In this document: in pieces, positions 40,452 through 60,237 of the stretch
How the letters are laid out: each line of letters begins with the position of its first letter
Numbering within the stretch: the stretch's first letter is position 1
Assembly (NCBI GenBank): GCA_043797985.1
Contig: JAZDPB010000174.1
Coordinates: 1 to 60,327 of the forward strand
Length of the DNA: 60,327 bases
Direction: 5' to 3'
Origin: Chloroflexota bacterium
GTDB taxonomy: Bacteria > Chloroflexota > Dehalococcoidia > Dehalococcoidales > UBA2162
Translations under genes and position numbers: made by a program
The notes under the pieces: model-generated
Told to the model about the DNA's origin: nothing
The model's database searches: none
The model's input: only the letters and a program-made list of their open reading frames with translations

Positions 40452-42434
40452 TTATTCGCGCAGCTTGACATACATCGTTTCCAGGTCTTCGAGCCAGAGT
40501 TTTGCCTCGGCATCTGAGGGCATTCTCCAGTCCCCGCGCGGAGACAGGCTTACTGTGCCAACCTTTGGTCCTTCGGGAAGGCATGTCCTCTTAAACTGAT
40601 TGGCGAAGAACCGCTCGATGAAACTCTTAAGCCATTTATGCAAGTCATTGAGTGTGTATCGATTTTCGAAGAGTCCCTGTTTGTTTACCTCGTTGGCTAA
40701 ATAAAGAATTTTGCCCGGTCGCATCCCAAAACGAATAAAAGGATAAAGGTAAAAGTCGGCAAGCTCAACCGGTCCGATGACCTCCTCGCTCTTTTGAATA
40801 ATCTTGCCCTTCTCCGGTCGCAACAATTCTGGAGAGATTGGTGTTTTTAGTATGCTATACAGCACCTTTTGCGCCGGGGAATCAGCCAGCTCTTCATCAG
40901 CGACCCACTGCACGAGATAACGGACGAGTGTCTTGGGAACAGAAACGTTGATATGATAATGTGAGACGTGGTCACCAGCAAATGTGCTCCATCCTAGCGC
41001 AACTTCAGTCAGGTCGCCTGTACCCAGGGCAATACCATTCAGTTCGTTGGCTTTGTTAAAGAAGAATTCGGTGCGGTATCGAGCCTGTACGTTCTCGAAG
41101 ACTACGTCTTCTTGTCCATTGTGCCCGAGGTCTCTCAGGTGTGATTTGCTGGTTCTATTGATGTTCACTTGCCCGAAACTCACTCCTAATGATTGGCACA
41201 GTTTCGTAGCGTTAGTCTTGGTTCTTCGAGTAGTACCAAAACCGGGAAGGGTATAAGCATGGACGTTACTTCGAGGTAAGCCGAGAAAATCCATCGTCTT
41301 TGCCGCAACGAGAAGTGCTAGTGTCGAGTCAAGTCCTCCAGAAATGCCCATCACCAGATGGCGCCTATTGGAGCCGGAGAGCTTCTTGGCGAGCGAGGCC
41401 ACCTGCATGGAAAAGATTTCCTTACATCTTTCTGTTCTTCTGGTTGGGTCCGCCGGAACAAAGGGGTGAGGGGCTATTGTTCGCCGTAGCTGGCTGGGTA
41501 TGAAATCTTTAACCTCCGTTTCAACGATTCTAAACTTTCTTAATTGTTTAGAATTATCAGGGAAACTGGTGGTCGCGCGACGGTCATGAGCCAGCCGGTC
41601 GAGGTCGATGTCAGAGATTATAAGCTGAGTGCCCGGCGATAGTCGGCTCGATTCCTGGAGTATGACCCCGTTTTCAGCGATGATGGTATGCCCGCCATAA
41701 ATGACGTCATTAGACGATTCCCCGATACCTGACGATACATAGCAATAGGATGCCAGGCATCGGCCGGACTCAGAAGATACCATTATTCGACGCCAGTCTG
41801 GCTTTCCAAGCACCTCGTTGCTTGCCGAAAGATTAAGCAGTATGGTTGCCCCAGCTATTGCCTGGTATTCATGAGGCGAGGGTGAAACCCATAAATCTTC
41901 ACAAATCTCTACCCCGATGATCGCTGAAGCCATCCCTCGCAATTCAAAGAGGATGTCTGTGCCAAAGGGAACTCGTTGTCCTGCTAGTTCGATAGTATCT
42001 GAACGAGCGTCTGTGCTGGGTGAGAACCATCGGTCTTCGTAGAACTCTTTGTATGAAGGCAAAAGAGTTTTGGGTATTACTCCGAGGATATGCCCGGAAT
42101 TCAATACTACAGCACAGTTAAAAATCTTCTGGTCAACCGATAGAGGCATCCCTACTATTACAACCATAGCGTTCTTGGCGCACTCGTTTAGAATTTCGCT
42201 TAGTCCCGTTTTCGCCTTCAGGAGTAATACCTGCTGTTGCACCAAATCGCCGATAGTGTAACCAGTTAGAGACATCTCAGGGAAAGTTACTACCTGTACT
42301 CCTTCATCCCTGGCTTTTCTTATGAGTTCGATAATGCTGGCAACATTGAAGTCAACATTGGCAACACGGAGCTCGGGGACTGCCCCGCCGATGCGCAGGA
42401 ATCCAAGGTCATTACTCAATTTAATATCACTCAT
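40452..42434 (-). CDS. nadE: glutamine-dependent NAD+ synthetase
   Basis: 660 aa. N-terminal CN-hydrolase (nitrilase-like) domain and a C-terminal NAD synthase domain with the P-loop ISGGLDS. Confidence 0.88.
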   Translation of the reverse strand: MSDIKLSNDLGFLRIGGAVPELRVANVDFNVASIIELIRKARDEGVQVVTFPEMSLTGYTIGDLVQQQVLLLKAKTGLSEILNECAKNAMVVIVGMPLSVDQKIFNCAVVLNSGHILGVIPKTLLPSYKEFYEDRWFSPSTDARSDTIELAGQRVPFGTDILFELRGMASAIIGVEICEDLWVSPSPHEYQAIAGATILLNLSASNEVLGKPDWRRIMVSSESGRCLASYCYVSSGIGESSNDVIYGGHTIIAENGVILQESSRLSPGTQLIISDIDLDRLAHDRRATTSFPDNSKQLRKFRIVETEVKDFIPSQLRRTIAPHPFVPADPTRRTERCKEIFSMQVASLAKKLSGSNRRHLVMGISGGLDSTLALLVAAKTMDFLGLPRSNVHAYTLPGFGTTRRTKTNATKLCQSLGVSFGQVNINRTSKSHLRDLGHNGQEDVVFENVQARYRTEFFFNKANELNGIALGTGDLTEVALGWSTFAGDHVSHYHINVSVPKTLVRYLVQWVADEELADSPAQKVLYSILKTPISPELLRPEKGKIIQKSEEVIGPVELADFYLYPFIRFGMRPGKILYLANEVNKQGLFENRYTLNDLHKWLKSFIERFFANQFKRTCLPEGPKVGTVSLSPRGDWRMPSDAEAKLWLEDLETMYVKLRE

Positions 42435-42497
42435 ATCTCAATCCTTTTCAGTTTGGCGCTTGCCTAGCCAATTAATTCTGCTTGAGGGAATATTTAG

Positions 42498-43493
42498 CTA
42501 GAGCTGCCAGAAACTGATTAGCCGCTCAAAATCAATCAGTCCGCTTTCGCCGATATTCACGACTTCAATTCCCGCCTCAACTGCTGCCGCCAGCGGGTTC
42601 AAACCGCCCATTAGCACCATGCCAACGCGATTTAGACCTACGGCAATTTGACAAACTGGTTCGCTGGTATTGCCCAGGACCAAAACGCCTTTAATGCCGG
42701 CTTCTTTGAGTAGAGCGATTCTCTCATCGGCAATGGCTCTCGATGCCGCCGGTATCTCGCGGAAATTAGCGAGTATTTTACCGTTACCGGTTTTCACTGC
42801 GTCGGTGACACTGGTCATCCTGGCGCGGATATACTGCTCAGAAGGGTCGAGGGATGTGCCTGAGTAATTGATTAAAGCTACGAACCGTCTTGGTTTAGAG
42901 TCTCTAAGCTCCAGCACTCCACCAAACTTGGATTCTATTGGAATGCCGGCTTTAAGAAGCACTCCGTTTATAGTCACGCTACAAACAGTAGCCAGGCCGA
43001 TTTTCCCGCTCGGTATCACCACCGAACCAAGTTTTTCACCTTCAGCGGCTGTAGCTACCAGTTCACTGACACAAAATCCCGCTTTGAATGTGCTCGCCAT
43101 CGCTGATAATACCCTTTTTAATTTATCAGCATCAATGAGCGAAGTATTTATTGGAAGCTGGCCAGTGCGTTTTTCCGGGTCAAAGGTGGTGTGGAACGCC
43201 AAAAGCTCAAGTTTCTCCTCTATGAAACCGACTTGCTCCGGTGCCAGAGCCATCTTGAGCTCCTCAAGACCTTGTGGGGTGAGCATCCTGCCGTCACGGC
43301 CCAGAGGCTGGGTATAGCCGCGCTCGTCAGTTATTCGCAGGTGGTATCTAACCGCGCGTTCACTTAAAAAAATCCCGTGTCGTTCAAGTTCACGAGCAAT
43401 AGCGATGGAGCCTAATGGCTCCGACGATTCGCTCAGGACTTTTAGAATGGATATCAGCTTCTGCTCAGTATTACGGCCTTCATTCGATATCAT
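42498..43493 (-). CDS. nrpR: NrpR-type nitrogen regulator (winged helix + NrpR/DUF128 domain), copy 1
   Basis: 331 aa. N-terminal wHTH (LISILKVLSESSEPLGSIAIARELERHGIFLSERAVRYHL) followed by one NrpR domain. A paralogue of the same length lies at 52116..53111. Confidence 0.72.
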   Translation of the reverse strand: MISNEGRNTEQKLISILKVLSESSEPLGSIAIARELERHGIFLSERAVRYHLRITDERGYTQPLGRDGRMLTPQGLEELKMALAPEQVGFIEEKLELLAFHTTFDPEKRTGQLPINTSLIDADKLKRVLSAMASTFKAGFCVSELVATAAEGEKLGSVVIPSGKIGLATVCSVTINGVLLKAGIPIESKFGGVLELRDSKPRRFVALINYSGTSLDPSEQYIRARMTSVTDAVKTGNGKILANFREIPAASRAIADERIALLKEAGIKGVLVLGNTSEPVCQIAVGLNRVGMVLMGGLNPLAAAVEAGIEVVNIGESGLIDFERLISFWQL

Positions 43494-43570
43494 ATCGACT
43501 CCTGAGGACTATTTTATACTAATCATACCATCTTTGCTCTAAGAAACTAAATAGTATGGTTAGTATGAGC

Positions 43571-46500
43571 TTATTTTATATCTGCATGATAGCTCTGGAG
43601 GGATTTGACTTCCGATTTGCCCTCGCGGTAAGCGGTTATGCCTTTGGCCGCAGCCGTGGCAGCAGCTAACGTCGTGATATAGGGTACCCGGTACTTTATC
43701 GCTGCCTTGCGGATATATGAGTCGTCATACCGGCTTTGTTTCCCTGTTGGTGTATTGATTACCAGTTGAATTTCCCTGTTCTTGATGGCGTCGGTGATAT
43801 TGGGGCGTCCTTCATGTTCTTTGAGAATGTGTTCCGAAGGGATGCCTTGGCTCAACAGAAAATCGTGCGTGCCTTCTGTAGCCTTTATCTTGAAACCGAG
43901 ATTAGCAAACTGTCTGGCTACTTCTTTTACCGCCGGACGGTCACGCTCCGAGACGGTGATAAGCACGGTGCCCTCGGTAGGCAGTATTGATACTGCCTCC
44001 TCTGCCTTCCAGAAAGCCATCCCGAAGGAGTTGGCGATGCCAAGCACTTCACCGGTGGATTGCATTTCTGGCCTGAGTACCGGGTCGACTTCGGGGAACA
44101 TATTGAAGGGGAAGACCGATTCCTTAACACCGAAGTGAGGTATGTGTCGTTTCTTCAGGTTGAGGTCCTTGATTTTTTTGCCCATCATGAGCTGGGTAGC
44201 CAGACGTGCCATCGGAATGCCGCAAACCTTAGAGACAAGTGGAACAGTGCGGGAGGCACGTGGATTGGCTTCCAGTACATAGACCACATCCTGGCAGATA
44301 GCGTATTGTATATTCATGACGCCGACCACTTTAAGCTCACTGGCAATACGCCGCGTGTATTCTTCTATGGTGTTAATGTGTTTCTGGGGTATGCTTACTG
44401 GTGGGATGACACAGGCGGCATCGCCAGAATGAACGCCGGCGTATTCGATGTGTTCCATGATGGCTGGAATGAAGACATCTTCACCGTCAGCAAGGGCATC
44501 GGCTTCGGTCTCGATGGCATTCTCCAGGTAGCGTTCAATAAGAATAGGCCGGTCTGGCGTTACCACGATGGCAGCGTTCACGTACCGTCTTAATTCCTCC
44601 TCGTCGTGGATTATCTCCATACCTCGCCCGCCGAGCACGTACGACGGACGAACAATAAGTGGATAGCCGATGCGCTTTGCCACGACCAGGGCTTCATCGA
44701 GACTGGTGGCGGTGCCTGATTCCGGCATCGGGATACCGTATTTTTTCATCATCTGATTGAATCGCCCGCGGTCGGAGGCAATGTCTATTGAATTTACCGA
44801 AGTGCCCAATATATTAACGCCAGCTTTTTCAAGCTCTGCGGCAATGTTAAGCGGTGTCTGCCCACCGAACTGGACAATGACACCAATAGGTTTCTCCTTT
44901 TCATGGATACTCAGCACATCTTCCACTGTCAGAGGCTCGAAGTACAGCTTATCTGACGTATCGTAGTCGGTGGATACTGTTTCGGGATTACAGTTAATCA
45001 TTATCGTTTCGTATCCCTCGTCCCGCAGGGCGAATGTGGCATGAACGCAACAATAATCGAACTCTATACCCTGGCCGATACGAATGGGTCCACTGCCGAT
45101 AACTATGGCTTTCTTCCTTTCAGTAGGCCGTGTCTCGTCTTCCTGCTCGTAGGTGCTATAGAAATATGGTGTACTGGCATCAAACTCAGCAGCACAGGTA
45201 TCGACAATTTTGTAAACAGGTTGAATATTCCAGCTACGGCGCAGTTCCCTTACCTGCCCGTGAAGCCTGCCTGTGAGTGCTCCTAGTTGCTCATCCGAGA
45301 AGCCGAGTCGCTTTGCCTGCCACAGGAGTTCGGGGGTCAGTGGTTGGGAGCGAAGTATCTGTTCCATATCTACGATGTTCCGCAGCTTGGTAGTAAACCA
45401 CAAATCAATCTTGGTTCGTTCGGCAATAGCTTCCGGAGTTATTCCTCTTCTCAAGGCAGCCATTATCGCCCACAGCCTCAGGTCATTGGGTTCCAGGGGA
45501 TACGAGTTTATGTCGGTTGCCAGCTTCCATTTCGGGTCTTCCCACAGGAGCGACCTCCGGCTGGACTCCAGCGAGCGCACTGCTTTCTGAAGCGCCGCCT
45601 CAAAACACCGTTCAATAGCCATTACTTCACCGGTGGCTTTCATCTGGGTGCCGATAGTGCGGTTGTTGGAGGCAAACTTCTCAAATGGCCAGTTAGGAAT
45701 CTTAACTACAAGGTAGTCCAGTGCTGGCTCGAAAGAAGCCATCGTTTTTCCAGTTACCTGATTTGGGATTTGGTCCAGCCTCTTGCCTACAGCTATTTTG
45801 GCTGCGACACGGGCGATAGGGTAGCCGGTAGCTTTACTGGCTAGGGCTGAGCTACGGCTAACACGAGGATTAACCTCAATCACATAGTATTGGTCACTAT
45901 TGGGGTCAAGGGCAAACTGGATATTACAGCCACCTTCGATGCCCAGTGCCCGGATAATCTTGAGACTGGCGGTTCTTAACATCTGATATTCTTTATTGTT
46001 TAGTGTCTGACTTGGAGCAACTACGATGCTGTCACCGGTATGCACTCCCATCGGGTCGAAGTTTTCCATGTTACAGACTGTAATGCAGTTATCGGCAGCA
46101 TCCCGCATTACTTCATACTCTATTTCCTTCCAGCCACCCACCCAGCATTCCAGCAGCACCAGGTGGATGGGGCTGATTGCTAGAGCATTAGCCGCCACCG
46201 CTTCCAGTTCCTCCCAGGTGTAAGCCACGCCCCCGCCAGTACCACCTAGGGTAAAAGAAGGGCGGATTATCAGCGGCAAGCCCATTTCTCTAGCGGCTTT
46301 TTTTGCCTCATCCAGCGTAGTAACACTGGTGCTCTCTATCACCGGTTCTCCAATGCTGAGCAGGAGCTTTTTGAATAGCTCTCGATTGGAAGCATTTCTT
46401 ATTGTCTCTATCGGTGTCCCGAGCGACCTTACGTTATATTTATCAAGTACTCCGGCTTCAGCTAGCTCGTGGGCGAGAGTAAGCCCGGTCTGACCACCAA

Positions 46501-46762
46501 GCGTGGGTAGTAATCCGTCCGGGCGTTCTTTCTCGATGATACGGGTGAGCATTTCTACTGTCAGCGGCTCAATGTAGACGATATCGGCAATACCCGGGTC
46601 GGTCATAATAGTGGCCGGGTTGGAGTTGACCAGTACCGAGGTTACTCCTTCTTCTCGCATCCCCCGGCATGCCTGCGTGCCGGCATAGTCAAACTCCGCC
46701 GCCTGCCCGATGACAATTGGACCCGAGCCGATAATTAAGACTTTAGTTGGCTTACTTACCAA
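43571..46762 (-). CDS. carB: carbamoyl-phosphate synthase large subunit
   Basis: 1063 aa. Duplicated ATP-grasp halves (IIGSGPIVIGQAAEFDYAG / VIGSGPIRIGQGIEFDYC) and a C-terminal MGS-like domain. Confidence 0.95.
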   Translation of the reverse strand: MVSKPTKVLIIGSGPIVIGQAAEFDYAGTQACRGMREEGVTSVLVNSNPATIMTDPGIADIVYIEPLTVEMLTRIIEKERPDGLLPTLGGQTGLTLAHELAEAGVLDKYNVRSLGTPIETIRNASNRELFKKLLLSIGEPVIESTSVTTLDEAKKAAREMGLPLIIRPSFTLGGTGGGVAYTWEELEAVAANALAISPIHLVLLECWVGGWKEIEYEVMRDAADNCITVCNMENFDPMGVHTGDSIVVAPSQTLNNKEYQMLRTASLKIIRALGIEGGCNIQFALDPNSDQYYVIEVNPRVSRSSALASKATGYPIARVAAKIAVGKRLDQIPNQVTGKTMASFEPALDYLVVKIPNWPFEKFASNNRTIGTQMKATGEVMAIERCFEAALQKAVRSLESSRRSLLWEDPKWKLATDINSYPLEPNDLRLWAIMAALRRGITPEAIAERTKIDLWFTTKLRNIVDMEQILRSQPLTPELLWQAKRLGFSDEQLGALTGRLHGQVRELRRSWNIQPVYKIVDTCAAEFDASTPYFYSTYEQEDETRPTERKKAIVIGSGPIRIGQGIEFDYCCVHATFALRDEGYETIMINCNPETVSTDYDTSDKLYFEPLTVEDVLSIHEKEKPIGVIVQFGGQTPLNIAAELEKAGVNILGTSVNSIDIASDRGRFNQMMKKYGIPMPESGTATSLDEALVVAKRIGYPLIVRPSYVLGGRGMEIIHDEEELRRYVNAAIVVTPDRPILIERYLENAIETEADALADGEDVFIPAIMEHIEYAGVHSGDAACVIPPVSIPQKHINTIEEYTRRIASELKVVGVMNIQYAICQDVVYVLEANPRASRTVPLVSKVCGIPMARLATQLMMGKKIKDLNLKKRHIPHFGVKESVFPFNMFPEVDPVLRPEMQSTGEVLGIANSFGMAFWKAEEAVSILPTEGTVLITVSERDRPAVKEVARQFANLGFKIKATEGTHDFLLSQGIPSEHILKEHEGRPNITDAIKNREIQLVINTPTGKQSRYDDSYIRKAAIKYRVPYITTLAAATAAAKGITAYREGKSEVKSLQSYHADIK

Positions 46763-46811
46763 TTGAACCTCATTCTTCCCTTTCCTATTCTCTTAGACAC
46801 TCTTTGCTTAA

Positions 46812-47168
46812 ATCCCTCTCACTTCTCCCTTTACGAAAGGGAGAAGACCTATATCTCCCCCTTTGGCAAAGAGCCTGCCGCCGTTCCTCCTGAACTATGG
46901 CAGGCGGGGGACTAAGGGGATTTCCATCTCTCTGTTTATTATTATTCCTTCCTCACTACGGGGAGGTTGATGAAAGAGGGGCTACCGCCCCTCTTAATTT
47001 TCTACCCTATTATACAAAAATATTCAAACTTGTGTGAGTCTAAGAGAGGCAAAGCCTCTCTTACCTTTGCTCCCCTTTCCCTTAACGAAGGGGATACAGG
47101 GGATAGGGTCACCACCTTCTCTCCTGCCCTCCGGATTGCTTCGTCGCTAACGCTCCTCGCAATGACAT
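46812..47168. repeat. ~350-bp array of hairpin repeat modules filling the carA-carB spacer
   Basis: At least seven modules, for example CTTCTCCC-tttacgaaa-GGGAGAAG, GCCTGCCGCC..GGCAGGCGGGGG, AGAGGGGC-tacc-GCCCCTCT, AAGAGAGGC-aaa-GCCTCTCTT, TCCCCTTTCCC..GGGGATAGGG, and CTCCTCGCAATGAC at the right edge. All types recur elsewhere in the window. Confidence 0.8.
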
Positions 47169-47177
47169 TGGGAATAT

Positions 47178-48290
47178 TCATTTCTTTGTTTCCCTTATCA
47201 TTTCCAGAAACCGGTCAAAGAGGTAGGTGTTGTCCCAGGGACCGGGAGACGCTTCGGAGTGATATTGGATAGCGAAGATGGGTAACTCTTTGTGTCTCAA
47301 GCCCTCCACTGTACCGTCGTTCAAGTTTACCTGGGTGACCTCCAAGCCATTCTTGAGAGTATCCGGGTCGACGGCGTAACCGTGGTTTTGAGCCGTGATA
47401 AATATTCTGCCGCTAGACAATTCACGGACGGGATGATTACCGCCGCGGTGACCAAATTTCAGCTTGAAGGTCTTAGCACCGAAGCTGCGGGCAATAAGCT
47501 GAATGCCCAGACAGATACCCATAATCGGCTTCTTACCGATGAGCTGCTTGACTGTGGCTACGATGTAATCCAGTAACGCCGGGTCGCCCGGTCCTGGAGA
47601 CAGGAGAATACCGTCTGGCTTTAAAGAGAGGATTTCTGCCGCAGACATTGTGCAGGGCACGGCGGTTACGCTACAGCCTAAGCGGTTCAGAATACGCAGA
47701 ATGTTATACTTCAAGCCGCAGTCAAGAATGACTACATGGTGTATCGGTGTTGAGACTTCTGGCTGCCACTTGTAGGGGGTTGGGGTGGTTACCTCTTTGA
47801 CAAAATCAATAGAGCCATAACTGGGCACCCGGCGTAATTCTTCCAGAGCCTGTTGCGGCGTCTTGCTGCTGGTTATCATGCCCATCATTACGCCGGATGA
47901 GCGAAGTCGGCGAGTTAACGCCCGGGTGTCTATGCTGTGAATCCCAGGGGTACCGCTTTCCGATAGATATTCGTTAATGGTCTTTTGGCTCATGTAGTGA
48001 CTGGGCTTGAGGCATTGCTCCCTGACAACAAACCCTCGAACCTGTATCTTTGCCGATTCGAAGTCCTGCTCATTAACGCCGTAATTACCGATAAGAGGAT
48101 ACGTGGGAACTAGAATCTGTCCAGCATATGAAGGGTCGGTCAGCATTTCCTGGTAACCAATCATGCTGGTGCAAAATACTACTTCACCAAATGTGTCAGT
48201 CTCACCGCCAAAAGTGTAGCCCTGATGGATGGAGCCGTCTTCTAAAGCTAAAAATGCCTGTTTGCTCACATTGTCCTTTGAAGCACGCAC
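47178..48290 (-). CDS. carA: carbamoyl-phosphate synthase small (glutaminase) subunit
   Basis: 370 aa. Class I amidotransferase nucleophile elbow GICLGIQL and the HRGGNHPV / QYHSEA motifs. Confidence 0.93.
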   Translation of the reverse strand: MRASKDNVSKQAFLALEDGSIHQGYTFGGETDTFGEVVFCTSMIGYQEMLTDPSYAGQILVPTYPLIGNYGVNEQDFESAKIQVRGFVVREQCLKPSHYMSQKTINEYLSESGTPGIHSIDTRALTRRLRSSGVMMGMITSSKTPQQALEELRRVPSYGSIDFVKEVTTPTPYKWQPEVSTPIHHVVILDCGLKYNILRILNRLGCSVTAVPCTMSAAEILSLKPDGILLSPGPGDPALLDYIVATVKQLIGKKPIMGICLGIQLIARSFGAKTFKLKFGHRGGNHPVRELSSGRIFITAQNHGYAVDPDTLKNGLEVTQVNLNDGTVEGLRHKELPIFAIQYHSEASPGPWDNTYLFDRFLEMIRETKK

Positions 48291-51352: not shown

Positions 51353-51389
51353 GTTTCAGTTTAGCGCTTAATTGTTTCCAAATTATTAC
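51353..51389 (-). promoter_or_regulatory. direct GAAAC repeats / GlnR-box-like motif upstream of amt
   Basis: Minus-sense GTAAT-AATTTG-GAAAC (51374-51389) and a second GAAAC 21 nt downstream (51353-51357), between the atypical regulator gene and amt. A related GTAAA-N6-TAAAC lies at 49738-49753 upstream of glnA. Purely a pattern match. Confidence 0.2.
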
Positions 51390-51407
51390 CGCCGTATTAA
51401 ATTTTTG

Positions 51408-52091
51408 TTACGCGATGTTGTCTTCTTTGAATTTATAACCTATATTTCTCACCGTCTCAATAAAGGAGTGGCTCGGGTCCTCAATCTTACTTCGGAGTCT
51501 TCTTATGTGAACATCCACCGTCCTATCCCCACCATAATAATCGTAGCCCCAGACCTTATCGAGTAGGGCATCGCGAGTGAATACGCGACCTTTATTACCG
51601 GCCAGAAACTTAAGCAACTGGTATTCCATGAAGGTCAGCATTATCACTCTGCCGCACAAGGTGACTTCACACTTAGCCTGGTTTATTAATAGGTCGCTAC
51701 ACGTAATTAGTGTGCCGTCATCTGTTCGCTTAGTATCCTGGAGCAGCCGTTTTATCCTTACACTTACTTCTCTCAGGTCGTAGGGTTGGACTACAAAATC
51801 ATCTATCATGTCCAGATAACTATCGTTGTTATCGAGTATCTCCCCAGTAATCAAAGCAATAACCGGCAATTGTCGTTCTTGTTTTATTCGCCGGAAGATT
51901 TCCGCAGTGCCAGAAGCAGAGCGGTTACTATCCATTTCGAAAATGATTAGTGCTGGAGACTGGCGGGCGACCTGCTCTATTACCCTTTCGCTAAGAGAAG
52001 CGGTCGAACAGGTGAAGCCCTTCTGGACAAGTCCCGCACGCAATTCTTCACGTGTCTTACTTTCCTGAGCTATTATCAACAAATCGAGCAA
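51408..52091 (-). CDS. orphan OmpR-family regulator with aspartate-less (atypical) receiver domain
   Basis: 227 aa. TTG start with GGGGGAG 7 nt upstream. The receiver reads LLIIAQES (no DD pair), ALIIFEMD (Glu at the expected phospho-Asp position by eye) and DDFVVQPY (Gln for the conserved Lys). The C-terminal Trans_reg_C domain is intact (VHIRRLRSKIE...VRNIGYKF). Confidence 0.75.
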   Translation of the reverse strand: MLDLLIIAQESKTREELRAGLVQKGFTCSTASLSERVIEQVARQSPALIIFEMDSNRSASGTAEIFRRIKQERQLPVIALITGEILDNNDSYLDMIDDFVVQPYDLREVSVRIKRLLQDTKRTDDGTLITCSDLLINQAKCEVTLCGRVIMLTFMEYQLLKFLAGNKGRVFTRDALLDKVWGYDYYGGDRTVDVHIRRLRSKIEDPSHSFIETVRNIGYKFKEDNIA

Positions 52092-52115: not shown

Positions 52116-53111
52116 TCAACTCCAAGAGTGTCCCAATCTTTCAAAGTCGATGGTACCGCTCAAAGGGTGATTTATCACTTCTATCCCTGCTTCCGCAATA
52201 GCCGCCACCATATTCAAGCCATCGGCAAGTACCATGCCAACTCTGTTCGCTGCAACTGAAAGCTGACAGACGGTCTCGCCTATTCCTCCAAGAATAATCA
52301 ATCCCGTCATGCCTGCTACCTTTAACTCTTGGATAATTGCCTCTGCGTTTGTTCGACCGATGGCTGGTATTTCACAAAAGCTAGCCAATATATTACCATT
52401 ACCCTCTCTGGCCACATTACCGACTGAGGTCATTTTACTAGCGATGAATACCTTAGATGGGTCTAGTGAGCAACCGGCATATTCAATAAGGTCAACAAAG
52501 CGCAAAGCTTCATGGTTCCGAATCTGGATTATACCTCCGAATCTGGAATCCACTGGTATTCCGGCCCTTATCAAAGCCCCACAGGCTACGATGTGGGATA
52601 CTGTAGCTAAGCCGACCTTGCCTGTGGGCACAGTTACTTCCCCCAAATTTTCTCCTTCAAGAGCTACGGCTGTTAAGTCACTAATTCCAAGTGCAGAAAG
52701 GGAAATGCCTTTCACGGCTTCTATGGCTTGACTGAGTTTATCACTGGAGAACAATGACACATTGATGGGTACCTTTCCCATCCGTTTCTCAGGGTCGAAA
52801 GAGCTTTGGTAAGCTAGCGTTTCAATCTTGCTAGCCACCAAGCCTACCCGGTCGCTAACTAAGGCACTACCGAGTTCTTCGAGTCCGAATTTGGTAATCG
52901 ACCTGCCATCTCTCGTGCCAACAGTATGGGTAAGACCTCGTTCGTCCATGAACTTGAGGTGGTATCTCACTACTCTCTCACCTAAATCAATGCCTAGGTC
53001 ACAAAGTCGCCGAGCCAGAACTCTACCACCGAGAGGCCGTGGTGAATCGCTAAGTACCTTAAGAATCGCTATCGTCTTTCTCTCTATATCATTAGTTTGT
53101 TGACCTATCAT
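52116..53111 (-). CDS. nrpR: NrpR-type nitrogen regulator, copy 2
   Basis: 331 aa, collinear with copy 1 (roughly half the residues identical by eye, for example FDPEKR..PIN.SL, GLATV, AGIP..S.FGG, VGMVL, AGIEV). Confidence 0.72.
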   Translation of the reverse strand: MIGQQTNDIERKTIAILKVLSDSPRPLGGRVLARRLCDLGIDLGERVVRYHLKFMDERGLTHTVGTRDGRSITKFGLEELGSALVSDRVGLVASKIETLAYQSSFDPEKRMGKVPINVSLFSSDKLSQAIEAVKGISLSALGISDLTAVALEGENLGEVTVPTGKVGLATVSHIVACGALIRAGIPVDSRFGGIIQIRNHEALRFVDLIEYAGCSLDPSKVFIASKMTSVGNVAREGNGNILASFCEIPAIGRTNAEAIIQELKVAGMTGLIILGGIGETVCQLSVAANRVGMVLADGLNMVAAIAEAGIEVINHPLSGTIDFERLGHSWS

Positions 53112-53127: not shown

Positions 53128-53892
53128 TTAGTAGGCATAGAGCCTACCATAAGGTCGGAGCCAGCGAGGGAACAGTTTTACAAACTGGCGACTTAGTATC
53201 GCTTTGGCCTTATAGTCGAAGTACGCAGCGAATTTATTTACTAATTGCTCAAGAATCGAGTAGTCTTTCTCGTCCAGTTCAGCGACGCCGACTTCTTTAC
53301 CCAATTGATAGGTTTCTACGCTCCCTCTTAAGTAGATGACACCGCCGTGCATTCCGGTGCCGATAAATTTTGCTTTGTGATGTTCCCCTTCAGCGAGATT
53401 AAGCCCCAGTAGAACCAAGACACCACCGGCCATATACTCGCCGAGGAAGTCCTGGGCAGTGCCGCCGATAACCAGCATGGGTTTCTTATCCTGATACTCT
53501 TTCATGTGGATGCCGGCACGATACCCAACATCATCTCGAACGAAAATCTCGCCACCTCTAGCTGATAAGCCGATAATGTCTCCGGCATGGCCATGAACGA
53601 TTATTTCGCCGCTGTTCATGGTATTGCCGCAGCCGTCTTGAGCGTTGCCGTGGATAATAACCCGGGGTCCATCCATGAAGGCTCCTAGGTCATTACCGGG
53701 AGTGCCAAATATCTCAATATCTATTGGCTTGTTTAGGTCGGTACCAATGTATCTTTGCCCACAGACATTGTGGAGCTCGATTCTCTCGGTGCCATTTGAG
53801 ACTATCTCTCTAAGCTTGGCATTAAGCTCCCGGTAATAAACGCCAGCGGCGTCTATCTTTATCGTCGAGCATACTTCAGATTTCATCTTCAA
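53128..53892 (-). CDS. glutamate synthase GXGXG (GltB C-terminal) domain protein
   Basis: 254 aa. Repeated GxxGxxxG beta-helix motifs (HGNAQDGCGNTMNSGEIIVHGHAGD, GGTAQDFLGEYMAGG, GTGMHGG). The start overlaps the upstream gene stop (ATGA). Confidence 0.85.
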   Translation of the reverse strand: MKMKSEVCSTIKIDAAGVYYRELNAKLREIVSNGTERIELHNVCGQRYIGTDLNKPIDIEIFGTPGNDLGAFMDGPRVIIHGNAQDGCGNTMNSGEIIVHGHAGDIIGLSARGGEIFVRDDVGYRAGIHMKEYQDKKPMLVIGGTAQDFLGEYMAGGVLVLLGLNLAEGEHHKAKFIGTGMHGGVIYLRGSVETYQLGKEVGVAELDEKDYSILEQLVNKFAAYFDYKAKAILSRQFVKLFPRWLRPYGRLYAY

Positions 53893-55394
53893 CTCCCCGC
53901 TAATCTTACCCCTAAGGTTTCGAGTTCGGTATCGGTAAGTCCGATACCCCTTAAGTGTAGCCGATTGCCACGGAGGCTCTCGATAGCGTTGACGCCAAGC
54001 CCACCCAGTATATCTTTTATCTCACTGCTCCAGCCGCGGAGCAGGTTGGACAGTCGGCGGGCACCAATTTCGGGATTCACTCTCTTTGTCAGTCGGAGGT
54101 CGGTGGTGCATATACCCCAGGCACATTTTCCGGTATGGCATTGCTGACAGACGGTACAGCCCAGAGCTACCAGCGCCGCTGTTCCGATGTACACGGCATC
54201 GGCACCCAGAGCGATAGCCTTGGCCACATCACCGCTATTTCTGATACCACCAGAGACCACAATAGAAGCTTGGTTTCGTATCCCTTCCTGGCGTAAACGG
54301 CTATCCACCGTGGCCAGTGCCATCTCAATCGGAATGCCTACATTGTCACGGATAATCTTGGGGGCAGCGCCAGTGGCTCCCCTCAGACCATCAAGAACAA
54401 TGATGTCAGCTCCGGCACGCACCATACCACTGGCGATTGCCGCCGAGTTATGGACAGCGGCAATCTTGACCGATACTGGCTTGGTATAGTTAGTTGCCTC
54501 CTTCAGGGCATATATAAGCTGCGCCAGGTCTTCAATAGAGTAAATATCATGCTGCGGTGCGGGCGATAGGGCGTCCGTACCCTGCGGAATCATCCGCGTC
54601 AACGACACTTCAGCACTTACCTTTTCTCCTGGGAGGTGCCCACCAATGCCAGGCTTGGCTCCCTGGCCAATCTTAATCTCGATTACTTTGGCTACATCCA
54701 GGTATTCGGAATGAACACCGAAACGCCCAGAAGCTACCTGGACAATGGTATTCTCCCCATACTTGTATAGCTTATGGTGAAGCCCTCCTTCACCAGTGTT
54801 CCACAGAGTACCCATCTCGGTAGCCGCCATAGCAAGAGACTCATGAACATTAAGGCTTACCGCACCATATGACATGGCAGCAAACATCACCGGGACCTCC
54901 AGCTTTACCTGGGGAGCCAGTTCTGTCTTTATACTTAGGTGGTCTGAGTTGAGTTCTATTCGGTCAGGCTTTCGCCCAAGATAAGTGGTAAGCTCCATCG
55001 GTTCACGGAGTGGGTCGATGGATGGATTGGTTACCTGACTGGCGTTAAGCACCAGGTGGTCCCAGTAAATACGCTGGTTTCTATCGTCACCCATCCCGGT
55101 AAGGAGCACTCCGCCGGTCTCTGCCTGCTTAATGATGTCCTCGATTACATCCGGGCGCCAGTTGTAGTTCTCGCGATAGTCTAACGGGTTTCGACTGATA
55201 GTCAGCGCCCGGGTAGGGCAAAAGAGCACGCAGCGATGGCAGCCAACGCAGTTCTCCTCTCGGCTCTTTACTTCATTATCCTCAACATCATAGTAATGAG
55301 TATCGAAAGAGCACTGGTTGACACACACCTGACATTGGATACATCGCTCAGGGTCTCTTCTTATTAAGAATTTCGGTGCCAAATAGGTTTTCAC
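53889..55394 (-). CDS. glutamate synthase FMN-binding domain protein with N-terminal 2x[4Fe-4S] ferredoxin domain
   Basis: 501 aa. CIQCQVCVNQC and CVGCHRCVLFCP, then Glu_synthase core motifs (GEGG, GAKPGIGGHLPG, LDGLRGATGAAP, SGGIRNSGDVAKA). Confidence 0.88.
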   Translation of the reverse strand: MKTYLAPKFLIRRDPERCIQCQVCVNQCSFDTHYYDVEDNEVKSREENCVGCHRCVLFCPTRALTISRNPLDYRENYNWRPDVIEDIIKQAETGGVLLTGMGDDRNQRIYWDHLVLNASQVTNPSIDPLREPMELTTYLGRKPDRIELNSDHLSIKTELAPQVKLEVPVMFAAMSYGAVSLNVHESLAMAATEMGTLWNTGEGGLHHKLYKYGENTIVQVASGRFGVHSEYLDVAKVIEIKIGQGAKPGIGGHLPGEKVSAEVSLTRMIPQGTDALSPAPQHDIYSIEDLAQLIYALKEATNYTKPVSVKIAAVHNSAAIASGMVRAGADIIVLDGLRGATGAAPKIIRDNVGIPIEMALATVDSRLRQEGIRNQASIVVSGGIRNSGDVAKAIALGADAVYIGTAALVALGCTVCQQCHTGKCAWGICTTDLRLTKRVNPEIGARRLSNLLRGWSSEIKDILGGLGVNAIESLRGNRLHLRGIGLTDTELETLGVRLAGS

Positions 55395-55404: not shown

Positions 55405-56181
55405 TTAAATTCGTACTGGAACTTTCCGTTTTGCCAGGTATTCCTTTACTTCTGTAATAGAGTAAGTCCCGTAGTGGAAAATACTGGCAGCCAGGACTGC
55501 ATCCGCTTTGCCTGAAACCAGCGCCTGGTACAGGTCTTCCGGCTTGCCAGCACCACCACTGGCTACCACCGGCACAGTGACACTTTCTGAAATTGCTCTA
55601 AGCAGTTCCAGGTCGTATCCGGCTCGAGTTCCATCGGCGTCAATGCTATTCACCACAATTTCACCGGCACCCAGCATGACTGCTTTCTTCGCCCACTCAA
55701 CTGCGTCTAAGCCGGTAGCGCGTCCCCCACCTACCCCGGTGTAGGTAAAGATTTCCCACCGGGCAGGATTTGAGTTGACCACTCTCCTAGCGTCCATACC
55801 CAGCACGATACACTGGTTACCGAAGCGATGAGCACCTTCGGTTATCAGTTCTGGATTGAGTACTGCCGCCGTGTTGATGGAGACCTTATCGGCACCGGAT
55901 TCCAGCATCAACCGCATGTCTTCCACAGTGCGCAGTCCCCCACCGACAGTGAAGGGAATAAATATCTGGCTAGCGGTATGTTCCACTATCTTCAGCATAA
56001 TCGGGCGTTCGTCACTGGAAGCAGTGATGTCGTAGAATACCAGCTCATCGGCACCCTCTTTGTTATAGAAGGCAGCCAGTTCCACCGGGTCGCCGGCGTC
56101 ACGGTGGTCAAGGAACTTCACGCCCTTCACCACCCGGCCATCCTTCACATCGAGACAGGGAATAATTCTTTTCGTCAGCAT
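55405..56181 (-). CDS. hisF: imidazole glycerol phosphate synthase cyclase subunit
   Basis: 258 aa. Canonical [18 protein letters not shown] and ASGGAG motifs. Confidence 0.92.
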
Positions 56182-56182
56182 T

Positions 56183-57376
56183 TTACATCGCTTCCCCGGC
56201 GGTTATTGCTTCCTTATTAGTTATAGATTGCGCCTGGAATACCGTTTTTAATCTACCTATCACTGGTTCGCCACCTGCTGGAATCCACGTTCTGTCCAGT
56301 TCAGGACATATCAGGCGGATAGCAGACTCTTCGGACGAAAGATATATCATGTTACTCTTTTCTCCGACGGTCAGTGGTCGTAATCTGATACGGTCGGTCA
56401 GTCCAATCATTTCCCCGTGATGAGCAACTATTATCGTGAACGGTCCGTTCAAGAGTAAGCTACCATATACCTGACGTAGAGCTTGCATTAGCTTTTGCTC
56501 TTCTTGTGGCATGCGCTCAATGTCGTTCCAGAAAGGCGGTGCCAGTATTTTGGCCACTATGTCCAGTGGCAGGTTGTGCTTACGCATGAGCAAGTCGATA
56601 GCATAAGCTACTACCTCGGTGTCGGTTTGCATTGTGCAATGGTAGCCGAATTGTTCTAAGTAACGACGATTTATTCCGTAGGATGAAATCTCACCGTTGT
56701 GGACCACAGTCCAGTCCAGCATGCAGAACGGGTGAGCTCCACCCCACCACCCGGGTGTATTGGTGGGAAAACGCCCATGTGCCGTCCATAGGTAACCTTC
56801 GTACTCCTCCAAGCGGAAGTAATCAGCTACATCCTCGGGGTAGCCTACACCCTTGAACACTGCCATATTCTTACCGCTAGAAAAGACAAAGCTATCGCCC
56901 AACTGTGTATTTATCTCCATTACCTTGCTTACAACATAATCATCTTCGGATTGCTTCTTGAGTTGTTGCTGTTCTATCTCAAGAAAGTAGCGCCATACTG
57001 CCGGGGGATTTGTCACATTTGATGTCGGTCGGGTAGGTACTTCTTCCTGGTACATCAGGTGAAAATTTGCCCGTAGAAATGCTTCTGTTTCTTGCTGTCC
57101 ACTCTGGCTAAGATACATCAGGTGAAAGGCGTATAAGTCAGCATATTCGGGGTATAGGCCATAGATGGCAAATCCACCACCCAGCCCATTGCCACGGTCA
57201 TGCATATTAGCAATAGCCTTGATGACACCTTCTCCAGAAAACCTCTCGCCTGAGGTATCCATAGCTCCGAATATGGAGCAGGCGTCAATTACCTTGTCAT
57301 CTTGGTTCGGGTTATTTACTTGTCTCAGGTTTTTCACTATAGCTCCTCCTAAAATATGAGTGCTACTCGCCGACAA
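56183..57376 (-). CDS. class II (Ntn) glutamine amidotransferase domain protein (GltB N-terminal domain)
   Basis: 397-aa ORF. AGGAGG-agctata-GTG suggests the real start is at 57337. The catalytic Cys sits in [10 protein letters not shown], 19 residues after that start, so a propeptide is implied. [10 protein letters not shown] and HNGEISSY motifs fit GATase_2. Confidence 0.82.
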
Positions 57377-58710
57377 GCATCTCCTCGGGCACTTCTACGG
57401 AAGTTACCAGGGAAGTTGATTTTGATGTTGGTAATGCTAATTGCGGTCGCCAGATTTCTTCAGGGAGAGATGCCAGGCCAAAATTATCATCAACCAGAGA
57501 CTGCTTGAAGCTGTCGACATTTATTCTGTCTTTCATGAGATTGTAGATAATGCCTGACTTCTCGATATCGCCACTAAAGACCAAGCCTGTTATCAGTCCG
57601 TCTTTTAAGACCATCTTCTTATAGAGATGGTCGTGTTTGGTGGTGATTACCTCGAAACTATCATCAGGTGGGATTGCCATGCCAGCCGAGACAATATTCA
57701 TCCCGAAATATTTCATGGAGTTTATTGCCGTTCCCCCCCCGATATTCAGCTGGAATGCCGGACATATTTAAACCTGCAATCCTTCCTCCCATGTAGGCGT
57801 TAGGCCATACTGGAGCAAGCCGATTCTCTCCATAGACGAAATCGTAAGCCTCAGCGGCATCACCACAGGCATAAACATCATTTATAGATGTAGCCATATG
57901 ACGGTCGACCACTATGCCGCGGTTCGTCCTTATCTGGGTGTCAGCTACAAGCTCAGTGCGTGGCTTGACGCCGATAGCTACAACCACCATCTCGCATGGT
58001 ATCGGTTGTCCATTATCCAGGTTGACACCAGTGGCTTCACCAGGCAAATAGCTGCCAATTTTCACCACCGTACGTCCGGTTATTATCTCAACGCCAGCCT
58101 GTGTCAGAGCCTTCTCCTCCAAAGCTGATGCTTCTTCATCGAGAATAGTATTCAGAATCCGTTCCTTCATCTCAACGATGGTAACCTCAACTCCTCGCTT
58201 CACCAACGCTTCAGTAACACTTATACCGATGAGGCCACCACCAATGACAATAGCCCTGACCTTTCTTCCGTAGTGGTTCAGGAGTTCGTCGATTGTCTTG
58301 GCATCGTCAAGCTTAGTAAAAGTGAAAACTCCTTCTAGCCCGATACCCTCTATTTTGGGAACGATGGGTGAGCCGCCGGTGGCAAACAGTAATTTCTGCC
58401 AGGTTAGCGTTCGCCCGCTATTCAGATTAATGCTACGGTTATTGAAGTTAACCTGCGCTACCTCTTCATTTAGGAGGACACGGATGTTGTTCTTATCATA
58501 GAAATCAGGCAAACGGAATAGCATCCTCTCCAGTGGGCACTTATTAGCTAGATACTCAGAGATAAGCGGTCTTGAGTAGGCAGGGTAAGGCTCATCGGAA
58601 ATTATGGTGATGGTCCCTGCCTTGTCTGTCTCACGGATAGCTTCAGCAGCGCCAATACCTCCGGCGGAATTCCCGATAATCAAATACTTTGTTTTCTCTG
58701 TCTTTGCCAT
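57363..58710 (-). CDS. FAD/NAD(P)-dependent pyridine nucleotide-disulfide-type oxidoreductase (FNOR/NADH-oxidase-like), frameshifted at a G8 run
   Basis: ORFs 57664..58710 and 57363..57716 are two halves of one protein. Removing one C from CCCCCCCC (57733-57740) gives ...IPAEYRGGTAINSMKYFGMNIV.... The motifs are IIGNSAGGIGAAEA and IGGGLIGISVTEA. Confidence 0.8.
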
Positions 58711-58729: not shown

Positions 58730-59356
58730 CTATACCCTCTTTTTTCCTTTTCCCAGGGCAAGTTTGATGAAATTATCATAAAGCTTAAGTCCAAGCTCAC
58801 CGCTCTTTTCCGGGTGAAACTGGGTGGCTATCAGATTGCCCCGGGTGAGGACACTGCATATCGGGATACCATATTCGGTTTCGCCAGCGACCAGCGACCT
58901 ATCATTAGGTTCTACGTAATAGCTGTGCACGAAGTAGAAGTTAGCTTCATCCGGTATGCCATCGAAAATCGGGTGAGAAATCTTCTGCCTCACCTGGTTC
59001 CAACCCATGTGTGGGACCTTTAACCCGACAGGAAGCCTGCGTACCGTTCCATGTATAATGTCCAGGCATTCATGACCACCGTCTTCTTCGGTGGTGGTAA
59101 ATAAAATTTGAAGTCCGAGGCAAACACCAAGGAAAGGTTTACCTTCGGCAATAAATTGCCGAATCGGGTTGACCAGTCCCAGCGTCTCCAGGTTAGTCAT
59201 GGTGTCAGCCGCTGCTCCAACCCCAGGGAGGATGACCCCTTGGGCAGTAAACATTTCGTGGGGGCTATTGGTTATCTTCGCCTTGTAGCCCAGTTTGCTT
59301 ATGGCGTTTACCACGCTACGCAAATTGCCAGCACCATAATCGATTATAGCAATCAT
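58730..59356 (-). CDS. hisH: imidazole glycerol phosphate synthase glutaminase subunit
   Basis: 208 aa. MIAIIDYGAGNLRSV, nucleophile GVCLGLQ, and HSYY / QFHPEKS motifs. Confidence 0.92.
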   Translation of the reverse strand: MIAIIDYGAGNLRSVVNAISKLGYKAKITNSPHEMFTAQGVILPGVGAAADTMTNLETLGLVNPIRQFIAEGKPFLGVCLGLQILFTTTEEDGGHECLDIIHGTVRRLPVGLKVPHMGWNQVRQKISHPIFDGIPDEANFYFVHSYYVEPNDRSLVAGETEYGIPICSVLTRGNLIATQFHPEKSGELGLKLYDNFIKLALGKGKKRV

Positions 59357-59387
59357 CCTGCTTTTCCCTTTGCTTGCTTATTGAGGT

Positions 59388-59762
59388 TCAATTCTTAACA
59401 GTAACTTCTACTATGTTCTCCCGGGCGATAGCCCTTCCCTTACCATCGTTTTCTTCTTCGATAAAGACATGCATTAATCCCATTATTTCATATTGACCGT
59501 TTTCCAGATTGGTTGTGTCCCACCTGACGGAGAAAGATTTGTGTTCGTCCTGTGATTCTCCGATTTGAATCCAGGTATCAGTATTCTTTTTCCGGTAATA
59601 CCAGGGGTTGTTTATCCTGACAACACGCCCGGTGAGGCCCAACTCTTCTAGCTCCTTGTATAGTCTAGCTTGGTCGTATTCTTCACGCAATAGCACATTC
59701 CCTGAATAGGTTTTGATAACACCGGTAGGAACGAGATAGTGAGGTCCCCAATCGTATGACAT
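59388..59762 (-). CDS. hypothetical protein
   Basis: 124-aa track ORF in operon context. The C-terminal half (FSVRWDTTNLENGQYEIMGLMHVF...VEVTVKN) looks like a small beta-sandwich. No family recognised. Confidence 0.45.
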   Translation of the reverse strand: MSYDWGPHYLVPTGVIKTYSGNVLLREEYDQARLYKELEELGLTGRVVRINNPWYYRKKNTDTWIQIGESQDEHKSFSVRWDTTNLENGQYEIMGLMHVFIEEENDGKGRAIARENIVEVTVKN

Positions 59763-59784
59763 GATACGCCTCCTTTAAATATAT

Positions 59785-60237
59785 TTAATTAACCGTCCTC
59801 TTGCAACTCGATACATACCAGCGCTTCGTTAGGGCAATTGGCAACACATGCCGGGATATTTTCCCCTCACATAGGTCACATTTAAATGCCTTCTTTTGTT
59901 CTTTATCCTGCCTTATTGCACCTAGAGGGCAAACCAACAAACATGTCCAGCAACCAATACATCGTTTCTCATCTACCTTGACCAAGGAACTCATCGGGTC
60001 ACGAGTAAGCGCACCGGTAAGGCAAGCCTGAACACACGGGGCTTCATCGCACTGTTGGCAGCGCACTGAGAAGGATACTGAGCCTCTTTCTTCCACGCGG
60101 AGTCGGGGTAAGATAGGTGGTGACTCGTGCTTGAAAGCCTTAATCAGGTCTTTCGATTGTGCATGTTGGAACCGGCAATACACCTCACAGAGATGACAGC
60201 CCATGCAAATGTCTTCTTTAACATAAATCCTTTTCAT
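59785..60237 (-). CDS. CooF/HycB-like multi-[4Fe-4S] ferredoxin, apparent frameshift near the 3' end
   Basis: 150-aa ORF with CMGCHLCEVYC, CQQCDEAPCVQAC, CIGCWTCLLVCP and KCDLCEG. After the run at about 59857-59866, the -1 frame reads IPACVANCPNEALVCIELQEDG (stop 59789-59791). That completes the fourth cluster motif, so a 1-nt indel is likely. Confidence 0.8.
   Translation of the reverse strand: MKRIYVKEDICMGCHLCEVYCRFQHAQSKDLIKAFKHESPPILPRLRVEERGSVSFSVRCQQCDEAPCVQACLTGALTRDPMSSLVKVDEKRCIGCWTCLLVCPLGAIRQDKEQKKAFKCDLCEGKISRHVLPIALTKRWYVSSCKRTVN

Follow-up and report, generated by a model that had tools for sequence, protein, structure and literature searches.

The stretch analysed here (the window) is one whole contig (C173) of 60,327 nucleotides from a metagenome-assembled genome (MAG) of a Chloroflexota bacterium of the order Dehalococcoidales, 1.73 Mb in size and 76% complete. 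According to its list of open reading frames (ORFs), it carries seventeen consecutive minus-strand genes, from 60237 down to 40452, in the order polyferredoxin, a 124-aa protein, hisH, FAD/NAD(P) oxidoreductase, glutamate synthase (GOGAT) amidotransferase, hisF, GOGAT FMN/Fe-S subunit, GOGAT GXGXG subunit, a NrpR-type regulator (nrpRa), an OmpR-type regulator resembling GlnR, amt, PII, type I glnA, carA, carB, a second NrpR-type regulator (nrpRb) and nadE. We consider it likely that this block represents a lineage-wide, modular nitrogen-assimilation supercluster, built from at least three transcription units and under two-tier control. The gene identities, the synteny in relatives and the conservation and position of the sequence motifs described below are direct observations, and all the parts are members of known families, so that no new kind of biology is involved.

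Three promoter types, two of them with candidate operators

The gaps of the block harbor three promoter architectures, i.e. a dyad at the lead promoter, a set of direct repeats before amt and a separate promoter before nrpRb (coordinates in Table 1). The contig ends only 90 nt upstream of the first gene, and the lead promoter still lies inside it. Its TTGACA-17-TAnnAT layout also precedes the orthologous ferredoxin gene in 10 relatives. The dyad past its -10 is found at 11 of 11 orthologous lead promoters (the window and 10 relatives), always 3-10 nt past the -10 and with the invariant core GGnAA-N4-TTnCC, while the exact form CGGCAA-N4-TTGCCG has only 2 copies in the 1.73-Mb genome. Allowing up to 2 mismatches, the dyad also occurs at 19 of 34 promoters of nrpRc, the third NrpR paralogue (background 0.03 per 150 nt), and it follows the -10 of the nrpRc of this genome, located on contig C51. 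It further precedes 4 of 21 operons of a GltB-like protein and some operons led by hisH, and is nearly absent before nrpRb (1/73), the GlnR-like gene (0/22), glnA (2/38), carA (0/9) and nadE (1/31). Genomes with nrpRb only (G001, G007, G013 and G016) keep the dyad at the GOGAT promoter and those with nrpRc only keep it at nrpRc, hence both clades probably read one site. Judging from this co-occurrence, the dyad is probably an NrpR operator.

The methanococcal NrpR operator reportedly reads GGAA-N6-TTCC, a motif attributed to the work of Lie and Leigh from 2003 and 2005. The core of the present dyad has the same 14-bp span and the same outer GG/CC, and variants of the type GGAAA...TTTCC fit both. 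A search of the window for the exact archaeal form yields a single match, inside carB, versus 1.27 expected, i.e. chance level. The second exact genomic copy of the dyad, CGGCAATTTATTGCCG, lies inside hisH and was also considered as an operator. It encodes IRQFIAE, an instance of the conserved peptide IRQ(L/F)IAE, and 16 of 17 hisH orthologues lack the dyad; it is possibly an auxiliary operator or a by-product of the coding sequence.

Concerning the regulators, both NrpR proteins of the window match HTH_12 (61-69 bits) and PF01995 (233-268 bits) over the full model length, and the nrpRc product of C51 reaches 283 bits with PF01995. The paralogues were assigned to clades from one quick tree. 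In it nrpRb forms a derived clade of 73 sequences (Shimodaira-Hasegawa-like approximate likelihood-ratio test, SH-aLRT, 99) and is the gene that, across the lineage, closes the nitrogen cluster. The widespread type is nrpRc, which small closed genomes of the order have as well. The nrpRa sequences form a small clade, whose 4 loci share an identical context, always between the GXGXG and the GlnR-like genes. The NrpR domain is found in 53 of 61 genomes of the order Dehalococcoidales, including 20 of 20 high-quality ones, and in a phylum-wide sample in only 18 of 151 genomes, 15 of the 18 belonging to the class of the window (its own genome counted). In archaea, NrpR represses nif and glnA promoters in a 2-oxoglutarate-dependent manner, and its own level is not regulated by nitrogen (PMC9765008).

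The nrpRc gene of this genome (G000, C51:162-2738) has its own dyad after a TTGACA/TATAGT promoter and is followed by a second HisF-type gene (TIGR00735, 338 bits) and by a gene for a 530-aa Cys-rich GltB-like FMN protein. A near-duplicate of the start of this module lies on C181:3-2132, and the three-gene module is kept across the order, small closed genomes included.

The OmpR-type regulator has GlnR chains from S. erythraea and M. tuberculosis as its top three PDB matches (8HIG with 2e-31, 8HML and 8HIH). The 8HML DNA-binding domain gives 105 bits and 54% identity without gaps, versus at most 81 bits for other chains that contain only a DNA-binding domain; NCBIfam yields only below-cut-off matches (PhoB, MtrA and others). 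The acceptor Asp of the receiver is replaced by Glu in the window and in most orthologues, by Ala, Thr or Ser in four, and is retained in one (L122); the conserved Lys is a Gln, and the acidic pair and the Thr/Ser are lost. No kinase gene is detected with Pfam among the 17 genes of the cluster. As the resemblance comes from PDB matches, and the shared DNA contacts lie in a helix common to the OmpR/PhoB family, the statement that the regulator works like GlnR is better supported than the statement that it is a GlnR orthologue. GlnR itself acts independently of Asp phosphorylation (PMC10235972).

Upstream of amt, four direct repeats follow each other with an exact 11-bp period. The 3x11-bp pattern occurs at 3 positions genome-wide, 2 of which are the amt site. 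Across relatives the boxes are found upstream of amt in 8 of 21 loci with a strict regular expression and, by eye, in about 11 of 15 orthologous upstream regions plus the window, against a background of 0.002 per 150 nt; they are specific to the upstream regions of amt and glnA, the latter in some relatives. The -10 is likewise kept, as cTAAACT or TAGACT at the same distance from the boxes. For GlnR, a-sites (gTnAc) and b-sites (GaAAC) have been described, with four protomers on the amtB promoter and the b2 site downstream of the -35, and both the layout of the boxes described here and the position of the last one past the -35 agree with that transcription activation complex (PMC10235972). Of 15 distinct loci, 14 have the GlnR-like gene at the end of a dyad-controlled operon (GOGAT, hisHF or nrpR), 13 of these with a gap of 7-95 nt, and past the box-bearing spacer follows amt (11 loci) or glnA (3 loci). 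This placement inside dyad-controlled operons suggests a cascade from NrpR through the GlnR-like regulator to amt-glnK.

The third architecture is the promoter of nrpRb, where a block CTATTyAGCTTTT...GTGGTATAAT is conserved, by eye, in most of 70 upstream regions. A 13-nt inverted repeat, ATACTAACCATAC / GTATGATTAGTAT, flanks this promoter within the gap 43494-43570, its right arm lying over the -10, and is not present in the closest relative.

Of the remaining gaps, the one between carA and carB is a mosaic of 30-55-nt repeats when compared with the genome by blastn-short, and a search for repeats within the gap itself, with 9-nt seeds, finds nothing; in the relatives G006 and G010 the same gap measures 16-22 nt. 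The spacer contains short GC-rich hairpin modules and a promoter-like CTCACA-18-TATAAT (47038-47009) from which carB could be transcribed on its own. Right after PII, in the gap 49682-49762, a start-stop pair stands behind a ribosome-binding site (GGAGGT-n6-GTG-TAA), and relatives have 6-aa mini-ORFs at this position (MNIIRA in G010, MWAKCC in G025), possibly as a leader or re-initiation element ahead of glnA. Upstream of nadE, a segment GCGCCAAACTGAAA that resembles the amt -10 region GCGCTAAACTGAAA was discarded, being not conserved in two relatives that share the nrpRb-nadE order. The number of predicted intrinsic terminators equals the shuffled expectation, with none in the minus-strand intergenic gaps, and an Rfam scan of 40000-60327 at E <= 0.1 finds nothing, hence no glutamine riboswitch or leader RNA.

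These data bear on how many units the block comprises. The preliminary description had taken the 20 kb as one neighbourhood under 2-oxoglutarate/glutamine-responsive control and had looked to its intergenic gaps, whose list agrees with the gaps measured here, for a shared operator. In its strict form this is a single super-operon with one regulator and operators repeated among the gaps, and the 17 co-directional genes with mostly short gaps, the lack of convincing intrinsic terminators between them and the NrpR genes embedded in the block are what it would lead one to expect. Yet no motif is common to the five gaps, which contain three distinct promoter types and, between carA and carB, repeat DNA; the dyad stands only at the lead promoter and the boxes only before amt, each separately conserved, and nrpRb has an operator-free promoter of its own. 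Regulators of the 2-oxoglutarate-sensing type (NrpR, PII) are indeed an integral part of the neighbourhood, but it is not one regulatory unit, and we regard the single super-operon as improbable.

Gene order around nrpRb in relatives

Loci of relatives were annotated by tblastn with the proteins of the window. The 80 closest loci all come from MAGs of uncultured Dehalococcoidales or Dehalococcoidia, and the counts cover the 34 species-level loci in which 8 kb or more precede nrpRb. Co-directional nitrogen genes stand upstream of nrpRb in 26 of these 34 loci, and in 26 of the 28 where NrpRb identity is at least 65%. The genes found there are glnA (21 loci), amt/PII (16), nadE (15), hisH/F (14), the GlnR-like gene (12), GOGAT (11) and carAB (5). 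Near-full sets are present in few relatives only and the others hold subsets. G006 has the array fer4-hisH-FADox-GATase2-hisF-FMN-GXGXG-glnR-like-amt-PII-glnA-carA-carB-nrpRb, and so differs from the window in having no 124-aa protein gene, nrpRa or nadE, and G010 has GATase2-hisF-FMN-GXGXG-amt-PII-glnA-nadE-carA-carB-nrpRb. The hisH and hisF genes are interspersed among those of GOGAT in 10 loci of related species, with the same order each time. A lack of conservation in relatives, which would have spoken against the preliminary description, is not observed; what is kept is the presence of nitrogen genes before the same nrpR paralogue, while the block itself is modular and not fixed.

Two non-orthologous nadE subfamilies take part, the PRK02628 type in the window and the PRK13981 type in most relatives, which indicates that function, and not gene lineage, gets drawn in. 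By this comparison of gene orders, carAB or either nadE subfamily is recruited repeatedly, and the comparison supports a neighbourhood maintained by selection. In a carAB-containing sub-lineage of relatives (L114-L128), about 100 nt upstream of the pair formed by the hypothetical gene and nadE, a long conserved palindrome CTCGGTTGAC-n5-7-GTCAACTTGAG followed by CTCTAAAAT is observed, a different candidate operator.

A passive origin of the clustering has also to be weighed, in which small, gene-dense genomes and operon shuffling bring these genes together with no nitrogen co-regulation, the motifs belonging to other factors. In its favour, genome sizes are small (1-3 Mb), the content differs widely among relatives, carAB and nadE being cases in point, and the glutamine users are far from all gathered. 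The block was initially credited with most glutamine-consuming enzymes, but it holds four (GOGAT, imidazole glycerol phosphate synthase, carbamoyl-phosphate synthase and NadE) of at least ten amidotransferase systems, and six others (PdxT, two TrpG/PabA, GuaA, PurF and GlmS) are encoded elsewhere in the genome, on other contigs. Against this, the shuffling draws on one functional pool and keeps nrpRb at its end, nadE was recruited independently from two unrelated subfamilies, hisH and hisF moved away from hisA-hisI into the GOGAT operon, and the two classes of motif show a many-fold enrichment at precisely these promoters. We judge a purely passive origin unlikely, to about the same degree as the single super-operon.

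Genes of the block

Gene identities were established with Pfam and NCBIfam profiles, setting bit scores against the curated cut-off of each family (carB and PII with Pfam only). All 17 co-directional ORFs of the preliminary description are present at the positions it gave, and each of its gene names is backed by these profiles, the 124-aa protein, which matches no Pfam or NCBIfam family, standing apart. Features are collected in Table 1; nadE is convergent with a plus-strand gene at 39473-40294.

Table 1. Genes, promoters and candidate regulatory elements of the nitrogen block, in the direction of transcription.
Feature	Coordinates	Strand	Evidence or remark
Lead sigma-70-type promoter	60285..60313	-	TTGACA, 17 nt, TAGCAT, upstream TG; 10/12 positions, best promoter match in 20-kb region
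Dyad ACGGCAATCGGTTGCCGT (ACGGCAA-N4-TTGCCGT), candidate NrpR operator	60259..60276		8 nt downstream of lead -10
Polyferredoxin (2x4Fe-4S, CooF/HydN/PadI-like)	59785..60237	-	Fer4_11 and related Pfam; partial NCBIfam matches HydN, AegA, PadI
Conserved 124-aa protein, beta-sandwich	59388..59762	-	orthologues 59-66% identity in 12 relatives
Second exact dyad CGGCAATTTATTGCCG	59146..59161		inside hisH; one of two exact genome copies
hisH, imidazole glycerol phosphate synthase glutaminase subunit	58730..59356	-	TIGR01855, 219 bits (cut-off 105)
FAD/NAD(P) oxidoreductase (PadH/NirB-N-like)	57363..58710	-	Pyr_redox_2 and Rubredoxin_C
GOGAT glutamine amidotransferase (class II)	56183..57376	-	GATase_2, E 9e-13
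hisF, imidazole glycerol phosphate synthase cyclase subunit	55405..56181	-	TIGR00735, 377 bits (cut-off 295)
GOGAT FMN/synthase subunit, N-terminal 2x4Fe-4S domain	53889..55394	-	Glu_synthase E 2e-140 and Fer4 families
GOGAT GXGXG subunit	53128..53892	-	PF01493, 113 bits
nrpRa	52116..53111	-	HTH_12 and PF01995, 233 bits
Orphan OmpR/PhoB-type regulator, degenerate receiver, GlnR-like	51408..52091	-	Trans_reg_C 96 bits; Response_reg below cut-off
Four direct repeats GTAAC-n6-TTAAT-n6-GTAAT-n6-GAAAC, GlnR-type boxes	51374..51411	-	exact 11-bp period
amt promoter -10 TAAACT	51358..51363	-	10 nt past last box; no -35 hexamer
amt, ammonium transporter	50101..51330	-	TIGR00836, 475 bits (cut-off 343)
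PII (GlnK-type)	49763..50104	-	PF00543, 102 bits (cut-off 25); 4-nt overlap with amt
glnA, type I glutamine synthetase	48338..49681	-	TIGR00653, 559 bits (cut-off 429)
carA	47178..48290	-	TIGR01368, 480 bits (cut-off 307)
Dispersed short-repeat insertion, carA-carB gap	46763..47177		415 nt; pieces recur on ~35 contigs
carB	43571..46762	-	Pfam CPSase large-chain (CPSase_L) domains, E 2.5e-116
nrpRb own promoter	43522..43551	-	TTTAGT-like -35, extended -10 TGGTATGAT
nrpRb	42498..43493	-	PF01995, 268 bits; PDB match 3NEK (MJ0159), E 2e-22
nadE, glutamine-dependent NAD+ synthetase (nitrilase and synthetase domains)	40452..42434	-	NF002730, 854 bits (cut-off 473)

The glutamate synthase is of the split, three-protein kind, with GATase_2, Glu_synthase with two 4Fe-4S motifs and GXGXG encoded as separate proteins in one operon. 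The polyferredoxin is a probable electron-input subunit of this enzyme and the FAD/NAD(P) oxidoreductase its probable reductase partner; together, at the head of the operon, they suggest a GOGAT electron-donor module. Both genes are frameshifted in the window, the two homopolymer sites lying within 2.1 kb of each other. A G8 run (57733-57740) divides the oxidoreductase into the pieces 57664-58710 and 57363-57716; in G006 its orthologue is a single open frame of 457 aa between stops, and G025 also has it in one frame. In the ferredoxin, a frameshift at 59859-59866 costs the last Cys motif, IPACVANCPNEAL, which sits in another frame and agrees with the G006 orthologue. Since both genes, when read on in the other frame, match the intact orthologues, a homopolymer assembly error is the likeliest cause of both.

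As for histidine synthesis, the hisH of the block is the only one in the 76% complete assembly, and hisA-hisI lie on contig C34 with no hisH or hisF beside them, which indicates that the block copies are those that serve the pathway and that they were moved into the GOGAT operon. The hisA on C34:2597-3304 looks broken, with an ORF of only 164 aa and a tblastn match that runs to 3304, and may be another assembly frameshift. One could also imagine that HisH and HisF of the block, together with the second HisF near nrpRc and the GltB-like protein, are not, or not only, histidine enzymes and form e.g. a glutaminase/ammonia-channel module with glutamate-synthase-type proteins, given that genes of GOGAT subunits flank hisH and hisF in one and the same order in 10 loci and that the nrpRc module with the second hisF is conserved across the order. 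However, HisH and both HisFs pass the NCBI equivalog cut-offs for imidazole glycerol phosphate synthase, and the block copies are needed for histidine synthesis given a hisA-hisI pair with no other hisH/hisF. Of the explanations discussed we find this one the least probable, even more so than the two rejected above.

The gene for the 124-aa protein changes place within nitrogen clusters, its orthologues lying mostly directly before nadE in relatives and the copy of the window after the ferredoxin. Its motifs WGPxY, NPWYxRKK and WDT..LENGxYE are invariant. The AlphaFold model (predicted local distance difference test, pLDDT, 81) is a beta-sandwich, and a Foldseek comparison with the PDB gives nothing at E <= 0.001, only generic immunoglobulin-like beta-sandwiches with template modelling (TM) scores below 0.5.

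A proposed two-tier wiring and its relation to known systems

In the arrangement that we consider likely, unit 1 would run from 60313 to about 51408 from the strong sigma-70 promoter, with the dyad over the transcription start region, and would comprise the five-part split GOGAT, hisH, hisF, the conserved 124-aa protein, nrpRa and, last, the GlnR-like regulator. At low 2-oxoglutarate, NrpR dimers would occupy the dyad; nitrogen limitation would raise 2-oxoglutarate, NrpR would leave, and GOGAT and the GlnR-like activator would be switched on. In unit 2 the GlnR-like protein would occupy the four boxes as a head-to-tail tetramer, in the manner of GlnR at amtB, and bring RNA polymerase to amt-glnK, and transcription would probably read on into glnA, carA and carB, as no terminator is seen. 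Unit 3, nrpRb with nadE 63 nt behind, would be transcribed from its own conserved promoter, whose lack of an operator fits the constitutive expression reported for archaeal nrpR. From the arrangement of the elements we infer which protein binds which site, the response to 2-oxoglutarate, the boundaries of the transcripts and the read-through between genes.

Several points weigh against this wiring. The dyad core is related, but not identical, to the methanococcal operator, and any of the three NrpR paralogues present here may be its reader. The base contacts R186, V190, R193 and R194 of GlnR have equivalents in the RTVDVHIRRLR helix of the regulator. Helices of this type are common across the OmpR/PhoB family, hence they are no proof of GlnR-like specificity. 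There is no recognised operator before glnA, carA and nadE, so that only their short gaps and the missing terminators speak for including them in a nitrogen-regulated transcript, and the promoter-like site and hairpins of the repeat insertion between carA and carB might uncouple carB. Finally, the frameshifts could mean that the electron-input genes of GOGAT are dead in this strain, instead of mis-assembled.

A bolder reading, which we put forward tentatively and hold at rather less than an even chance, takes the whole 'glutamine economy' of Dehalococcoidales as one plastic super-operon run by a hybrid cascade. NrpR would sense 2-oxoglutarate and gate GOGAT, the histidine amidotransferase and an aspartate-less activator of GlnR type, which in turn would act on amt-glnK, glnA, carAB and possibly further genes by read-through; selection would pull hisHF, carAB and either nadE into the cluster so that they are made only when the glutamine supply rises. 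If true, this would be the earliest description of an NrpR regulon, and likewise of a GlnR-type circuit, away from the groups in which each is at home, with the two wired in series.

Nitrogen control in Dehalococcoidia, a group to which organohalide respirers used in bioremediation and also abundant subsurface lineages belong, is essentially uncharted. The two short DNA elements and four small regulators described here give a concrete, testable wiring diagram, in which a regulator type otherwise known from methanogens alone meets one that is otherwise known from actinobacteria alone. It also touches on the poorly understood split glutamate synthase, for which the polyferredoxin and FAD oxidoreductase are a pointer to the electron-input module, and on recurrent selection acting on the operon membership of glutamine-amide users, which helps regulon prediction in uncultured bacteria. 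A literature search for NrpR or GlnR in Dehalococcoidia or Chloroflexi returned no relevant paper, although databases and subscription journals may differ, and a search for carbamoyl-phosphate synthase, NAD synthetase and imidazole glycerol phosphate synthase joined to the core of glutamine synthetase (GS), GOGAT and Amt found none either. We accordingly found no description of a bacterial NrpR regulon and operator, of GlnR-type boxes outside Actinobacteria, or of the recurrent joining of hisHF, carAB and nadE.

Compared with methanogen NrpR (NrpR of Methanococcus maripaludis, NrpRI of Methanosarcina mazei, MJ0159 with structure 3NEK), the proteins share the HTH_12 plus PF01995 make-up, the candidate operator is likewise a 14-bp dyad with outer GG...CC over a nitrogen-assimilation promoter, and the promoter of the terminal nrpR is operator-free, as expected of a constitutive sensor. 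The differences are a bacterial host with sigma-70 promoters, a GGnAA half-site in place of the GGAA that archaea reportedly use, three paralogues with a probably autoregulated nrpRc class, and candidate targets that are GOGAT, hisHF and the GlnR-like regulator, and not glnA or nif.

The actinobacterial GlnR system (PMC10235972; 8HIH, 8HML), with boxes known at amtB-glnK-glnD and glnA, has in common with the present one an orphan OmpR/PhoB regulator that has no cognate kinase encoded nearby and four GTAAC/GAAAC-type pentamers spaced by 11 bp, the last of which lies past the -35 position of an amt promoter. Here, in contrast, the phylum is Chloroflexota and the gene is embedded in an operon under putative NrpR-type control; GlnR keeps its receiver Asp, though not for phosphorylation, whereas the receiver of the window has none.

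The split GOGAT of Clostridium thermocellum (Clo1313_2031-2036; PMC9888227) similarly consists of separate amidotransferase, FMN, GXGXG and ferredoxin-type subunits, encoded next to a type I glnA; the block differs in having hisH and hisF interleaved, in the FAD/NAD(P) oxidoreductase and polyferredoxin that lead the operon, and in adding amt-glnK, carAB, nadE and three regulators. Bacterial amtB-glnK and GS/GOGAT clusters in general resemble it in the translationally coupled amt-PII pair and the adjacent glnA, while here carbamoyl-phosphate synthase, NAD synthetase and imidazole glycerol phosphate synthase have joined them.

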